A stretch of DNA of 64,000 nt. Origin: Acidobacteriota bacterium. Lineage in GTDB: Bacteria > Acidobacteriota > UBA4820 > DSQY01. Every line of letters starts with the position of its first letter. The first letter of the stretch is position 1. The stretch is from positions 59,774 through 123,773 of the forward strand of contig JBMFSH010000005.1 of the NCBI GenBank assembly GCA_049967655.1, written 5' to 3'. Below, in pieces: positions 46,076 through 62,208 of the stretch. Below the pieces are notes generated by a model that was not told where the DNA came from, did not search any database, and saw only the letters and a list, made by a program, of their open reading frames with translations. A program made the translations under genes and the position numbers.

Positions 46076-46556
46076 CCCCAATCCCGCGATGGAACGGGGG
46101 AAAGAGCATGGAAAGCAGGCGGAGCAAGCCAATGAAGAAGAGGCCCTTGTCACCTATCAAGGGATTGGGGCGCCCTCGAGCCGAAGGCGAGATGACAGCA
46201 CCCTCTCCTCATCGCACCCCATACTGCACGGCTCCCCCTCAGTGGGGCCACCCGAAGTGCGGATAGAAGCGTGGAGGACGCTGGCCTCCCCCAACGCGCT
46301 CAACCTGAAGCCAGAGGACAACGGAGCCCCCCTTGACACGACCGGCCTGCTCATAGCAGGGCGCCAAGGGTGGGGTGAGGCTCCACGGGCTTGGCCCGTG
46401 GAGCGGGGCCCCGCAGGGCAATCTCCCGAACCGTCGGGCTTGGCTCGCGGTTCGGGGCGGCAAGGCCATGGCCCTCCCCGTTCAGGAGACAACGCCTTTC
46501 CCCCGTGAACCGGAGCCGTAGCCGAAAGCACCCGCATGTCCATCGCGGAATTTGGG
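46076..46556 (+). mobile_element. MITE-like non-autonomous element, copy A (481 bp, carries IS110 right-end segment)
   Basis: Imperfect TIRs CCCCAATCCCGCGATGGA / TCCATCGCGGAATTTGGG; homologous to inverted copy 50081-50396; internal hairpins. Confidence 0.75.
46173..46358 (+). ncRNA. Orphan homologue of the IS110 right-end (bridge/seek RNA-like) region
   Basis: About 75-80% identical by manual alignment to 60337-60524, including AAGTGCGGATAGAAGCGTGGA, TTGACA and the sub-terminal IR; no transposase nearby; expression not shown. Confidence 0.55.
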
Positions 46557-58060: not shown

Positions 58061-58848
58061 GGGGCGCCCTCCTCCGCCATCGGCTCGCCGACGGCTTTCA
58101 CGAAGAGGTCCTCCAGCGTGGCCGACTCTTCCAGGCCGAAGGCCGACCGCATCTCGTCCAGCGTCCCCACGGCCCGCACGGACCCCTTGTGCAGGATGGC
58201 CACCCGCGTGCAGATGCGCTCCACCAGCTCCATCACGTGAGACGAGAAGAAGATCGTCGTCCCCTCCCTCGTCATCTGGTGCAGGACCTCCTTGATGCCG
58301 CGCACGGCCAGCGGGTCCACCCCCGAGAAGGGCTCGTCCAGAAAGAGCAGGCGCGGCCGGTGGATGAGCGCGCAGCCAAGGGCCGTCTTCTTCTTCATGC
58401 CCGTGGAGTAGTCCACCACCAGCTTGCCGCCGTCCTCCTCCAGCCCCAGCCAGCTCAGCAGGTCCACGGCCCGCCGGCGCGCCGTGGCCGCGTCCAGCCC
58501 GTAGAGGCGACCCGAGAAGACCAGCGACTCGAAGCCCGTGAGCCGTTCGTAGAGCGCCAGCTCCTCGGGCACCAAGCCGATGCGGGCCTTCACCTCCATG
58601 GGGTGCTCGTAGGGGTCCAGCCCGAAGATCCGGATCGTCCCGGAGGTGGGCTTCAGCAGGCCCGCCGCCATCTTGATGGTGGTGGACTTGCCCGCCCCGT
58701 TGGGCCCCAGGAAGCCGAAGAACTCGCCCTCCCCCACCGCGAAGCTCAGCGAGTCCACCGCCGTGAAGTCGCCGAAGGTGCGCGTCAGCTTGTCAAAGCG
58801 CACCACCTCCCCGCCGTTCCCGCTCACCCGCGCCGCCGCCTCGTCCAT
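58045..58848 (-). CDS. ABC transporter ATP-binding protein
   Basis: GPNGAGKST, YSTGMKKK, LDEPFSGVDP, SSH. Confidence 0.95.
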   Translation of the reverse strand: MDEAAARVSGNGGEVVRFDKLTRTFGDFTAVDSLSFAVGEGEFFGFLGPNGAGKSTTIKMAAGLLKPTSGTIRIFGLDPYEHPMEVKARIGLVPEELALYERLTGFESLVFSGRLYGLDAATARRRAVDLLSWLGLEEDGGKLVVDYSTGMKKKTALGCALIHRPRLLFLDEPFSGVDPLAVRGIKEVLHQMTREGTTIFFSSHVMELVERICTRVAILHKGSVRAVGTLDEMRSAFGLEESATLEDLFVKAVGEPMAEEGAPWLTE

Positions 58849-58957
58849 CGCCGCCTCCGGCGCCGTATTGTACCAGAGCCCCTCCCCGTCGCCGCCATCC
58901 CCACGCCGCGCCCCCTACGTTTCCGTCCTTCCCGCCCCACCCTCTCCGCCGTTCCCC

Positions 58958-59042
58958 TCCTTCCCGCGAAAAGCTTGCCCCGGGCCCCGACCCGGGGCGG
59001 GAACCCAGGCCATGACGAGACAATCAGGATTCACCACGGAGA
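58958..59042 (+). repeat. REP-like palindromic unit plus left half of the IS110 target repeat
   Basis: TTCCCGC...GCGGGAA stem with nested CCCCGGG/CCCGGGG hairpin; paralogous to 61690-61749. Confidence 0.7.
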
Positions 59043-59125
59043 TGGAATGAGGAGGCCGGCCTCCACGGGGTCCAGTAGCCTGGCCCCAGTCTTTAGCGGG
59101 CTCGAAGCCCAAGGGAGGACCGGCC

Positions 59126-60187
59126 ATGAAGAAGGGTAGCACGAAGCGGGCTGTGGTTGTGGTGGGGTTGGATCTGGGAGAGCGGAACAGCCAGGTGTGC
59201 GGAGTGGATGCGCAGGGCGACTGGGTGATTGAGCGGCGGATAGGGACGACGAAAGCAGGTTTAGCGTCGATATTCGCGAAGCGACCTCGACTGCGGGTGG
59301 TGTTGGAGGCGGGCGGGCAGGCGCGGTGGGTAGCGGAAGCGGTGGGCGCGATGGGGCACGAGGTGAAGGTGGTGAACCCGCGCAAGATGCGGCGGATCTA
59401 CGAGAACGAGAACAAGAGCGACGTGGTTGACGCGAGGGAGCTGGCGGAGGCGGGGCTGTACCGGTGGGCGAAGCTGCCGGTAGCGTACCTGCGCGGGCAG
59501 CAGGCTCAAGAGAAGCTGGCGGTGCTGAGGTCGCGGGATCTTCTTGTTCAAGGGCGGACGAGCCTTGTGAACCTCGTGCGGTCGCTGCTGAAGCAGGAAG
59601 GGGTCCGCGTGCAGAAGTGCAGCACGGAAGCGTTCCCCCAGCGGGCCGGGGCGCTCGTCCCCGCGGGGCTGCGGGTGGCCGCCGAGCCGGTGCTCCGCAC
59701 CATCATGGAGCTGACGGAGCGGGTGAAGGAGCTGGACCGGTGGATCGAGGCGGAAGCGGAGCACGACTCGGCGGTGCAGAGCGTGCGGCAGATTCGGGGC
59801 GTGGGTCCTGTGACGGGTGCCGCGTTCGTGTGGACCCTCGAAGACCCAGGGAGATTCCGCAAGAGCCGCGCCGTGGGATCGTACCTGGGGCTACGGCCCA
59901 GGCGCGACCAGTCCGGGGAGACGGACAAGCAGATGCCCATCACGAAGGCCGGGAACTCCTATCTGCGGCGGCTCCTCGTGGGATGCGCGCACTACGTCCT
60001 GGGTCCGCACGGCCCGGACACGGCGCTGAGGCGGTGGGGGCTCACCCTCGCCCAGCGCGGGGGCAAGCGGGCCAAACGGAAGGCGGTGGTGGCCGTAGCG
60101 CGCAAGCTAGCCGTCCTTCTCCACCACTTGTGGGCCACCGGAGAGGTCTACGAAGCGTTCCCGGCCGCGAAGAGAGCGGCAGCTTGA
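59126..60187 (+). CDS. IS110 family DEDD recombinase/transposase
   Basis: VGLD, VLE, KSDVVDA (DEDD), GVGPVTG, YLGL.P...QSG (catalytic Ser), ARKLAV; SD GGAGG. Confidence 0.96.
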   Translation: MKKGSTKRAVVVVGLDLGERNSQVCGVDAQGDWVIERRIGTTKAGLASIFAKRPRLRVVLEAGGQARWVAEAVGAMGHEVKVVNPRKMRRIYENENKSDVVDARELAEAGLYRWAKLPVAYLRGQQAQEKLAVLRSRDLLVQGRTSLVNLVRSLLKQEGVRVQKCSTEAFPQRAGALVPAGLRVAAEPVLRTIMELTERVKELDRWIEAEAEHDSAVQSVRQIRGVGPVTGAAFVWTLEDPGRFRKSRAVGSYLGLRPRRDQSGETDKQMPITKAGNSYLRRLLVGCAHYVLGPHGPDTALRRWGLTLAQRGGKRAKRKAVVAVARKLAVLLHHLWATGEVYEAFPAAKRAAA

Positions 60188-60524
60188 ACCCAGGGAACAA
60201 GGACGGAAGGGCAAAGAGGCTGGGCAGGGAAAGATAAGAAAGGAAAGTAACGGACAGTACCATGCGGGATCACCAGCTTCCGAGACGGGACAGGGCGACT
60301 GCGGTTTGTGCCCGGGCGCGGCGGGAACGCGAGCTCCCCTCGACGCCGCCACGGAGATGGCAGCGCCCCCTCCCCATCGCCACCCATCGTGCACGGCCCT
60401 CCATGACTGGGCCCTCAAAAGTGCGGATAGAAGCGTGGAAGACGCTGGTCTCCCCCCCAAAGCGCCAAAACTAAAGTCAGCGGAAAACGGAGCGCCCCTT
60501 GACACGATCGGCCTCCTCATAGAA
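60188..60524 (+). ncRNA. Putative bridge/seek RNA in the IS right non-coding end
   Basis: Contains CCACGGAGATGG (= left junction), CGTGC (reverse complement of right target) and ATAGAAGC (= right junction) with hairpins; transcript ends unknown. Confidence 0.75.
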
Positions 60525-60611
60525 GCACGGAGAACACGGAGAAAGGAGGGAGTCAGGGCACAAATTGTGGCATTCCAAGATCTGGTTCTCGCTTCCCACG
60601 ACGGGGAGCCC

Positions 60612-60644
60612 TACGACTTCGGCTGGCTCTGGAAGGAGCTCGGC
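60612..60644 (+). repeat. Direct repeat copy 1 (gene 3'-end remnant, YDFGWLxxELG)
   Basis: 31/33 identity to 61378-61410. Confidence 0.75.
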
Positions 60645-60746
60645 ATCGACCGCGACAAGGAGATGGGGAAGTGCGGGCCCGCAAGAGGCACGATGCCGCG
60701 GCCGTAGGAGCGCTTTCCAGAGCGCGATGGGTCGGCCCGTGATGTT

Positions 60747-60971
60747 CTATTCGGTTTCGAAGAGTGAGCGCGGCAACCCGGATTGCCGGATGATCGAGGC
60801 GAGGGTTCCCAGCCGAAGCTCGGAGTGATTGGGGACAGGAACCGTGATGGTGGTCTTGTCGGAGCGCTTCTGCATGACGATGTGGCTGCCCTTTCGGCGC
60901 ACCTCCAGGAACCCCTGCCTGGCAAGAAGGGCACAGACCTCCTCCCCGGAAAGGAGGCGGAGCTTACCCAA
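60747..60971 (-). CDS. hicA: HicA family toxin
   Basis: GF..VRRKGSH, VPNH.EL..GTL.SI; TTG start overlapping hicB end. Confidence 0.92.
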   Translation of the reverse strand: MGKLRLLSGEEVCALLARQGFLEVRRKGSHIVMQKRSDKTTITVPVPNHSELRLGTLASIIRQSGLPRSLFETE

Positions 60972-61191
60972 GAGCCACCTCGAGCTGCGTGACGTACACT
61001 TCCTGGTGCAGCCTGCCTTCGACCTCTGCCGGATCGGCTTCCTCAAAGAACAACTCCAAAGCCTCTTTCAGATTGGCCTTCGCCTCTTCCACGGTGGCGC
61101 CCTGGCTGGCGATGTCCAGCTCAGGGCACAGGGCAAAGTAGCCCTCGCCTTCCCGCTCGATGATCGCCGTGAGCTGATGGGTCTGTCTCAT
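60964..61191 (-). CDS. hicB: HicB family antitoxin (short, no DNA-binding domain)
   Basis: YFALCPELDIASQGATVEEAKANLKEALEL; SD GGAGG. Confidence 0.92.
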   Translation of the reverse strand: MRQTHQLTAIIEREGEGYFALCPELDIASQGATVEEAKANLKEALELFFEEADPAEVEGRLHQEVYVTQLEVALG

Positions 61192-61377
61192 AAGGCCTCC
61201 TTCTTATTACGTTGCCTGGAAGCCATTGTAGCAGGAACTCAGCGGCAAGCCCACAGGCGAGGAAACGCATCCTTCCGTCAGACCGCCGCCGAACCCCGTT
61301 CGCACCCACAAGTCGTCGGGCTCCTCAAGTTCCTCGAACACAACGAGGCCAAAGGCTACCTCCACGGCGGCCCACTT

Positions 61378-61410
61378 TACGACTTCGGCTGGCTCTTGCA
61401 GGAGCTCGGC
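61378..61410 (+). repeat. Direct repeat copy 2 (gene 3'-end remnant)
   Basis: 31/33 identity to 60612-60644. Confidence 0.75.
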
Positions 61411-61566
61411 CATCTTGCCGGGCCGCCCAAGGAGCCGAACGGAAACGGGGCGAGAAGGCCTCGCCCCTCACCTTCCCCTCGGGCTCGGGCCATACGGGAG
61501 GGAGTTGGTCCATCGGGGCTAGAAGGTTCTTGGAAACGGGCGCTGCCTCTGAGACGAGCCACCCGC

Positions 61567-61689: not shown

Positions 61690-61772
61690 TCCTTCCCGCG
61701 AAAGCAGGAACCCAGGCCGTGATGAGACATTCAGAATTCACCACGGAGACCACGGGGAGCACGGAGAAAGGA
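61690..61772 (+). repeat. REP-like unit plus 9-mer triplet; empty paralogue of the IS110 target
   Basis: TCCTTCCCGCGAAAGCAGGAACCCAGGCC...ATTCACCACGGAGA|CCACGGGGAGCACGGAGAAAGGA aligns across both IS flanks. Confidence 0.85.
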
Positions 61773-62208
61773 TGGAGGCACCGGCCTTCTAAGACGGTGG
61801 TCGGGAGTCTGGATCCCTCTCCGCGTGCCGGCGTCGCGCCGCCGGTCATGGACAGCCTGCGGCCCTCCCTTCCTTCCAGTGAACAATTCGTGCACTTCCA
61901 AACCCCATCTTCTTCTTGCTCTCGGTCCGTTGCTCCCGCGGCTCATGGCGGGCTAACATGAGCCCATACCGCCCATTCGGGGAGGGGGAAGCCTTGATGC
62001 TCTGCGTCCAGACAGGCACACGCCATGGCTCACAACGGGAGGCGGCGGGCTCCCTGCCTCAACGGAAGCACTGCCAGGGCCAAGACCACGGCTTCCACGT
62101 CTGCGCCGCAAGGCCGTTGTCCGGCAGGCCTTCCAGACCGCACCATGCTGATACGAGCACCAGCCGGCCGTTGCCACGCTCGATCCGCCCCGCCCCAGAG
62201 GAGAGCGC

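Follow-up and report, generated by a model that had tools for sequence, protein, structure and literature searches.

An apparently intact IS1111-group insertion sequence with a predicted right-end bridge/seek RNA in an Acidobacteriota bacterium

The 64,000-nucleotide stretch of DNA analysed here, from an Acidobacteriota bacterium (contig JBMFSH010000005.1, positions 59,774 to 123,773; referred to below as the window, in whose own numbering all positions are given), very probably contains one intact insertion sequence of the IS1111 group of the IS110 family, located at 59042-60525 and predicted from its sequence to carry a bridge/seek RNA in its right end. We put the probability of this reading at close to nine in ten. 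The element is about 1484 bp long, with one copy of its AG core dinucleotide counted, and occupies a short tandem-repeat target, with an ATP-binding cassette (ABC) transporter ATPase gene on one side and a HicA gene on the other. It has the gene, ends and non-coding regions of the group, its right end has a fold that is conserved in homologues, and four guide segments in this right end covary with the junctions of homologues, as detailed below (for coordinates see Table 1).

The single gene of the element encodes a recombinase that matches the Pfam families PF01548 (DEDD_Tnp_IS110, 68.8 bits) and PF02371 (Transposase_20, 72.5 bits) as well as the NCBIfam model NF033542, 'IS110 family RNA-guided transposase' (238.6 bits, cut-off 140). 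The closest relative found is a 66% identical protein, and there is distant similarity to the solved IS621 transposase (PDB 8wt6, E 9e-9). Residues D16, E61, D99, D102, S263 and G264 are invariant among eight relatives, and are matched to the catalytic residues of IS621 by position rather than by residue-by-residue alignment. The translation also contains GLRPRRDQSG, which fits the GL-P----S(T)G motif given for IS1111 transposases by Siddiquee et al. (2024, PMC11187229). The inverted repeats are perfect over 12 bp and are separated from the left and right ends by 5 and 3 nt, respectively, in keeping with the description of IS1111-group subterminal inverted repeats as spanning 7-17 bp with short terminal extensions (PMC11208160). 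In homologues, both arms change together (e.g. ATGAGAAGGCC/GGCCTTCTCAT, ...GGTC/GACC..., ...AATGCC/GGCATT... and ...GGTGGCC/GGCCACC...), with at most one arm mismatch in 61 of 88 loci. The non-coding stretch ahead of the start codon measures 84 nt (59042-59125), versus 338 nt past the stop (60188-60525; 337 nt when counted only to 60524). The assignment to the IS1111 type of IS110 elements made in a preliminary description of this DNA, which was based on the letters and open reading frames alone, is thus borne out by the protein domains, the subterminal repeats and the long downstream non-coding end. A TTGACA motif stands 4-5 nt ahead of the right inverted repeat in nearly all homologues and, because it would lie 17 nt from GAAGAT (GA-AG-AT) across the junction of a circle, a junction promoter in the circularised element is plausible, by analogy with the junction promoters of other family members (PMC12288879). 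A scan of the element in its integrated form returned 0 sigma-70-like promoters.

For the comparison of right ends and junctions, 88 loci with homologous transposases of 45-66% identity were collected, comprising that of the window, 3 from related genomes and the remainder from 4 GTDB contigs (all from Acidobacteriota/Terriglobia or Dehalococcoidia assemblies) and 80 metagenome contigs. Both inverted repeats were found in 61 elements, of which 48 had all landmarks and enough flanking sequence and 13 were dropped; the 48 represent 44 distinct junction pairs, and give 1878 non-cognate comparisons. Target guides were scored as paired positions out of 9, with Watson-Crick pairs only. Whole 306-nt right ends aligned by MAFFT spread over 859 columns and were too gappy, and the right ends were instead extracted and aligned by a conserved GG(C/U)GACUGCG motif, with a trimmed 42-sequence alignment used for the fold and fixed alignment columns of these 42 homologues for the core and handshake counts. 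Chance expectations were taken from 100 shuffles of the window.

The target-binding loop is built, in order, from a basal stem (P1), the right-target guide, a variable distal hairpin (P2), the left-target guide and the second strand of the basal stem. This order follows from the pairing of the conserved motif with GCAGCGCC, which stands just past the 12-mer CCACGGAGATGG. In P1 the conserved strand GGGCGACUGC pairs with GCAGCGCC in 99.1% of cells, and three of its pairs show compensatory changes (GGUG/CACC in 16 sequences, but also GACG/CGUC, GAAG/CUUC and UGCG/CGCA); the stem is also present in the minimum-free-energy fold. Within this frame the 8-11 nt directly past the conserved motif are, in homologues, the reverse complement of the core and right flank, for example CTAACGT-CT for AG-ACGTTAG (locus L034), CCGACGGGC for GCCCGTCGG (L007), GTAGGTC for GACCTAC (L010) and AGTTCCC-CC for GG-GGGAACT (L053). 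Across the 44 junction pairs this right-target guide (60304-12 in the window) scores 7.30/9 with its cognate junction versus 4.23/9 with non-cognate ones, and 8 or more of 9 positions are paired in 19 of 44 cognate but only 0.3% of non-cognate combinations. In an unbiased scan, in which the 330 nt ahead of the right repeat were searched for the best complement of the core plus 7 nt, the best or tied-best match fell in the 5' half of the target loop for 44 of 51 elements (31 unique, 13 tied) and elsewhere for 7. The guide of the window itself forms 5 Watson-Crick and 2 G.U pairs with G-CACGGA and, because of the two G.U pairs, it is invisible to a search for exact complements.

The left-target guide had already been recognised in the preliminary description, where the 12-mer CCACGGAGATGG was noted at both the left junction (59034-45) and in the right end (60349-60). 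The string occurs twice in the window versus 0.02 times expected, and the segment covaries with the left junction in homologues (7.64/9 cognate, 5.05/9 non-cognate). Its two bases past the core equal the first two bases of the element in 36 of 42 homologues (33 of them AT/AT); the covarying cases are AA/AA, TT/TT and AC/AC, and 6 homologues are discordant. In IS621, the 3' guide is followed by handshake guides, which base-pair with the DNA of the other partner once strands have been exchanged (PMC11208158), and by analogy we infer that these two bases correspond topologically to them. The suggestion that the guides reach 2-3 nt past the crossover is accordingly right for 2 nt, whereas the further GG of the 12-mer consists of a spacer base and the first base of the basal stem. 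The two target guides also follow the order described for IS1111 seekRNAs, in which the top-strand complement precedes the bottom-strand complement in the 5' to 3' direction (Siddiquee et al., PMC11187229): the segment at 60304-12 complements the top strand of the right flank and that at 60349-58 equals the left flank.

In the donor-binding loop, a right-donor guide and a left-donor guide flank a distal arm in which stem P3 encloses hairpin P4. P3 is paired in 100% of cells with one compensatory change (GCAG/CUGC), and P4 in 81.9%, with all five of its pairs changed on both sides. The right-donor guide matches, as a 5-mer, the 5 nt ahead of the left inverted repeat at 4.12/5 for cognate versus 3.06/5 for non-cognate combinations, informative pairs being TCTAA/TTAGA, CCCTA/TAGGG, TCCCA/TGGGA, GCCAA/TTGGC (twice), CTCAT/ATGAG and CTCCG/CGGAA. 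In 42 of 44 cases, the left-donor guide repeats the final 5 nt of the element together with the core, and it takes four co-varying forms, ATAGAAG, ATGGAAG, ATGGGAG and ATGGAGG. This refines the second repeat of the preliminary description, the 8-mer ATAGAAGC shared by the right end (60427-34) and the right junction (60519-26): its ATAGAAG part is the left-donor guide, while the eighth matching base is not specific to the site in the window, since the following C is near-constant in homologues (37 of 44). The 8-mer occurs three times in the window versus 0.49 expected, the third copy (46263-70) being the same guide in a decayed relative. Among the seven homologues without this C, four (L038, L039, L059 and L079) carry in the next two bases a copy of the right flank, which hints at a handshake in the donor loop as well. 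Two metagenome loci show rearrangements in this region: in L088 the left-donor guide is followed by 21 nt that match the right flank of the element exactly, and the right flank of L031 consists of an internal stretch of a right end (CCCATCGTGCACGG…). The DNA of the donor guides mimics the element ends and may serve as a pseudo-end in such rearrangements.

Taken as a whole, the drawn structure is paired in 87.9% of cells versus 81.1% in shuffles, with none of 500 shuffles reaching this value, and pairing falls to 31-44% when the stem partners are slid. A covariance model built from the 42 RNAs is matched in full by the element, at 94.8 bits. With four guide segments covarying with the junctions, and stems that are conserved with compensatory changes, the right end has the features of a bridge RNA or seekRNA. 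The claim that it carries guides therefore stands, and the comparison with homologous right ends put forward as a check gave variation with the junctions for the 12-mer and ATAGAAG segments, but none for a third segment, CGTGC, discussed below. A further hairpin proposed past the left-donor guide, AGCGT-GGAAG-ACGCT (60432-46), is present as a string, but is not maintained in homologues: it is paired in 39.5% of cells versus 38.2% in shuffles (42 homologues, whose alignment is poor past the donor guide, so that a hairpin confined to one clade may still exist).

The crossover core is the dinucleotide AG (59040-41 and 60524-25), with an uncertainty of 1-2 nt on the original site. The dinucleotides of the left and right junctions agree in 39 of 42 homologues and are AG throughout, except in L053, where GG stands at the two junctions as well as in both left guides, with CC in the right-target guide. 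The register is set by the close relative L009, for which an unoccupied paralogue in the same genome (G020), CAC-CGCAGAG-GCGCCGAGG (register sequence CGCAGAGGCGCCGAGG), equals the two flanks joined by a single AG. Insertion is thus site-specific, without duplication beyond the short core, as AG is found at both junctions and once in the unoccupied paralogue of the L009 target. The target CCACGGAGA/GCACG of the preliminary description, with a crossover between these two strings, is therefore off by 1-2 nt. Joining the flanks between A and G would restore the 9-nt period of the target repeat family, but was rejected because it is incompatible with a shared 2-nt core. The target family is found at 58997-59041 continued at 60526-60560, at 61704-61790, and in at least nine places in the genome. 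Its members consist of a conserved stretch of about 45 nt (…CCAGGCC…TCAGGAYTCAC), two to four tandem CACGGAGAR 9-mers and then AAGGAGG. The repeat is multi-copy in all three same-genus genomes searched, has no Rfam match, and is paralleled by an analogous (GCGCAGAGG)n repeat targeted by L009 and L030. A contig of run X1 that skips the element was considered as an empty site and rejected, as it is a diverged repeat member like that of G003, with 33 other letters between the two sides; a search of G018 for the unoccupied L007 target gave 0 matches.

In the model that we propose by analogy with the experimentally studied ISEc11, ISPa11 and IS621, a bridge/seek RNA some 150 nt or more in length would be encoded by the right end and start near 60293. 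The 5' side of the target loop (60304-12) would pair with the top strand of the core and right flank, and its 3' side (60349-58) with the bottom strand of the left flank and core as well as with 2 nt of the left end of the element. In the donor loop, 60383-88 would pair with the left end of the element and 60427-33 with its right end and core. The RNA-bound recombinase would then bring the circularised element into synapsis with CCACGG-AG-CACGGA, and strand exchange would take place at AG.

Table 1. Features of the insertion sequence and its target, in window positions
Feature	Position	Strand	Remark
Left target half CCACGG, part of (CACGGAGAR)n repeat	59034..59039	+	Identical to guide 60349-54
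Core dinucleotide AG, left copy	59040..59041	+	Same dinucleotide at right junction 60524-25
Left terminal extension ATGGA	59042..59046	+	Kept as ATGGR or ATTGGR ahead of left inverted repeat; complementary to right-donor guide
Left subterminal inverted repeat ATGAGGAGGCCG	59047..59058	+	Reverse complement of 60509-20
Recombinase gene, 353 aa, DEDD RuvC-like domain and Tnp domain with SG motif	59126..60187	+	PF01548 and PF02371
P1 5' strand GGGCG-A-CUGC, basal stem of target-binding loop	60293..60302	+	Pairs with 60360-68
Right-target guide GTTTGTGCC	60304..60312	+	Pairs with top strand of G-CACGGA (60525-31)
P2, variable distal hairpin of target-binding loop	60313..60348	+	In fold; length varies, GG/CC base conserved
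Left-target guide CCACGG, core AG and handshake-like AT	60349..60358	+	Identical to 59034-43
P1 3' strand GCAGCGCCC	60360..60368	+	Partner of 60293-60302
Right-donor guide CCCATC	60383..60388	+	Complement of core G and ATGG of left end
P3 (GCAC/GUGC) enclosing hairpin P4 (GGCCC/GGGCC), donor-loop distal arm	60391..60424	+	Conserved pairing
Left-donor guide ATAGA and core AG	60427..60433	+	Same as last 5 nt of element and core
TTGACA, possible -35 box of circle-junction promoter	60499..60504	+	Conserved across family; function inferred
Right subterminal inverted repeat CGGCCTCCTCAT	60509..60520	+	Pairs with left arm 59047-58
Right terminal extension AGA and right core copy AG	60521..60525	+	
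Right target half CACGGAGAA CACGGAGAA	60526..60543	+	

Several observations weigh against the interpretation of 59042-60525 as an intact, RNA-guided element. The evidence is DNA sequence throughout, as no RNA run was listed for the stretch and all four runs compared with it were DNA contigs, so that the production, binding and use of the RNA, the formation of a circle and the presence of a junction promoter are deduced from it. The genome (147 contigs) holds a single copy of the element, and no unoccupied copy of the window site was found in the same strain. The right-target guide is weaker than most, with 5 Watson-Crick and 2 G.U pairs out of 9 and the core A facing a C and, judged on the window alone, the sites at 60304-12 and 60388-92 tie at 7/9 each when wobble pairs are allowed. 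If the core is AG, the pre-insertion site is reconstructed as CAC-CACGGAG-CACGGAGAA-CACGGAGAA, which falls 2 nt short of the length of four unoccupied family members and breaks the 9-nt period of the family, and the relative X2 has two extra A past its right core, which give three perfect 9-mers in the AG register. As to the RNA, the donor-loop basal stem, P5, is only 55.5% paired and is unsupported as drawn. P1, P2, P3 and P4 all appear in the minimum-free-energy fold, but its stability does not exceed that of shuffles (z = 0.40). Such a lack of extra stability is usual in GC-rich sequence. A search of 58500-61500 with Rfam 15 (E up to 1), which may hold no IS1111 bridge-RNA model, gave no bridge-RNA match, its sole hit being unrelated, weak and within the gene.

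Of the alternatives, the one that fares best accepts the element as described, but takes it to be immobile in its host, as an open-frame fossil, with an unexpressed RNA or with a guide that fits no site. The single copy in the genome would agree with this, as would the presence of three decayed relatives in the same genome and a right-target guide that is weak and has drifted: related copies in runs X1, X2 and X4 have a C at 60306, which would turn a G.U pair into G-C. We nevertheless regard immobility as unlikely, since the frame is open with all catalytic residues that are invariant in eight relatives, neither inverted repeat has a mismatch, all RNA stems are preserved in a full-length match to the covariance model, and a close copy is found at a different site in another sample. 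This copy (X2), on a public metagenome contig, differs by 77 letters and 8 gaps over about 1.5 kb and is located at a different member of the same target repeat family.

The arrangement given in the preliminary description, in which CGTGC (60388-92) is the right-target guide, the target guides flank a GATGG/CCATC stem and the crossover lies between CCACGGAGA and GCACG, is highly improbable. The strings themselves are where they were reported to be, CGTGC at 60388-92 as the reverse complement of GCACG at 60525-29, and GATGG and CCATC at 60356-60 and 60374-78. In the window alone the CGTGC site pairs, with wobble, with 7 of 9 positions of the core and right flank, as many as 60304-12, and the proposed crossover has the restored 9-nt period on its side. 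Such a tie is, however, found in no other of the 51 scanned elements, and the CGTGC site shows no covariation: it scores 3.93/9 with cognate versus 3.88/9 with non-cognate junctions, none of the 44 reaches 8 of 9, and the same CCCATCGTGCACG is present in L007 and L032 at quite different targets. GCACG or its complement occurs 179 times in the window versus 176 expected, so that the match is on its own no more than chance. Its letters fall in the right-donor guide and in the fully paired stem P3, its placement would reverse the guide order reported for IS1111 seekRNAs, and the GATGG/CCATC stem is absent from the conserved fold, because G60360 belongs to P1. Less probable still is that the internal copies of the junctions are debris of earlier insertions or captured targets and not guides, for although the target family is present in at least nine genomic places and rearranged copies such as L088 and L031 exist, the matching segments occupy fixed positions of a conserved fold and, across 44 different insertions into unrelated targets, vary with the flanks, one of them complements its flank instead of repeating it, and the G.U pairs of the guides fit RNA-DNA pairing, not DNA duplication.

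The covariance model of the predicted RNA has four matches in the genome, namely the element itself, 46158-46292 of the window, and contigs C25 and C9. The second is part of an internally deleted, decayed relative at 46090-46347, about 80% identical over the last 170 nt, which retains traces of the transposase start (about 46111-46153) and the donor loop and has lost the P1-type 5' strand of the basal stem. Its right-target guide GGCGCCCT (46168-75) complements the right junction of this same copy, AG-GGCGCC, without a mismatch, and the right end has decayed to ...CATAGCAG; this copy is an internally deleted relic in its original target. The matches on C25 (12067-12310, minus strand) and C9 (101296-101373, at the contig end) of the same genome (G000), loci L002 and L004, are transposase-less right-end RNA modules that share 99% identity over 105 nt and are 91% identical to the 46-kb copy, with unusual AT-rich sequence upstream. 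In another genome (G009, contig C33), locus L008 matches the RNA model in full length (1458-1708, 74.2 bits). Its right end is perfect, its left end can be recognised only weakly, and its right-target guide, TCCCGTCT, is complementary to the right junction AGACGGGA at every position; no transposase gene lies upstream, and the G009 assembly has only a 131-position IS110-family fragment. These transposase-less RNAs share donor guides with the complete element and carry other target guides. It is doubtful that L008 and the 46.1-46.35 kb, C25 and C9 copies are guide-carrying satellites rather than wrecks. If they were, and if they were transcribed, their RNAs could load in trans onto the recombinase already present and direct it, or the satellites themselves, to further sites. 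The literature search, which was not exhaustive, found only MITEPpu9 when looking for miniature inverted-repeat transposable elements that carry guides. A second IS110-family transposase gene in the same genome (contig C113:313-1293, minus strand), which scores above the NF033542 cut-off, is 28% identical and is unrelated to the element. Directly to the right of the insertion site, on the minus strand, lie an open reading frame with a HicA toxin domain (60747-61046; PF07927, E 2e-16) and, upstream of and overlapping it, one of 75 aa without a Pfam hit (60964-61191), which may encode the antitoxin.

SeekRNAs and bridge RNAs were described in 2024 (PMC11187229, PMC11208160), and bridge RNAs have been predicted in 93% of catalogued IS1111 elements (PMC11208160). 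The element of the window is of this known kind: it leaves the understanding of the mechanism unchanged, and the NCBI model already names its protein RNA-guided. What it adds, from a lineage that has been little studied, is an uncatalogued, apparently intact predicted RNA-guided recombinase whose guide code can be read. The comparison of 44 insertions provides a natural map of the four guides, the AG core and the handshake-like bases in its IS1111 subfamily, which could help the reprogramming of such elements. Set against the published descriptions of ISEc11, ISPa11, ISKpn4 and ISPst6 (PMC11187229), the element, known from sequence only, shares the DEDD transposase with the GL-P----S/TG motif, the subterminal inverted repeats, a long downstream non-coding region in which the top-strand complement lies 5' of the bottom-strand one, and a site-specific, often repetitive target; it differs in its host lineage (nearest relatives in Acidobacteriota/Terriglobia) and its (CACGGAGAR)n target. 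With IS621 (Durrant et al. 2024, PMC11208160; Hiraizumi et al. 2024, PMC11208158) it has in common the RuvC-like domain and serine Tnp domain, a pair of internal loops, in both of which a distal hairpin separates a 5' guide from a 3' guide, guides that read a 2-nt core and, on the 3' guide, 2 nt past the core that match the other partner, as handshake guides do. In contrast to IS621, as described in these papers, the predicted RNA is located in the right end past the gene and not in the left end, the core is AG and not CT, the 5' and 3' guides are, with respect to the direction of the gene, assigned to the opposite strands, the element has long inverted repeats, and the proteins are weakly similar. 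ISPpu9 and MITEPpu9 of Pseudomonas putida (Pares-Guillen et al. 2025, PMC12288879) likewise have AG at both ends and insert into repeats, although the bridge RNA of ISPpu9 is placed upstream of its gene. As with MITEPpu9, small transposase-less derivatives are scattered in the genome; MITEPpu9 is described as carrying the small RNA gene ssr9 and not a guide RNA, whereas the transposase-less relatives found here carry the bridge RNA, in most cases visibly decayed, which is only a mildly unusual addition to an element of a known kind.

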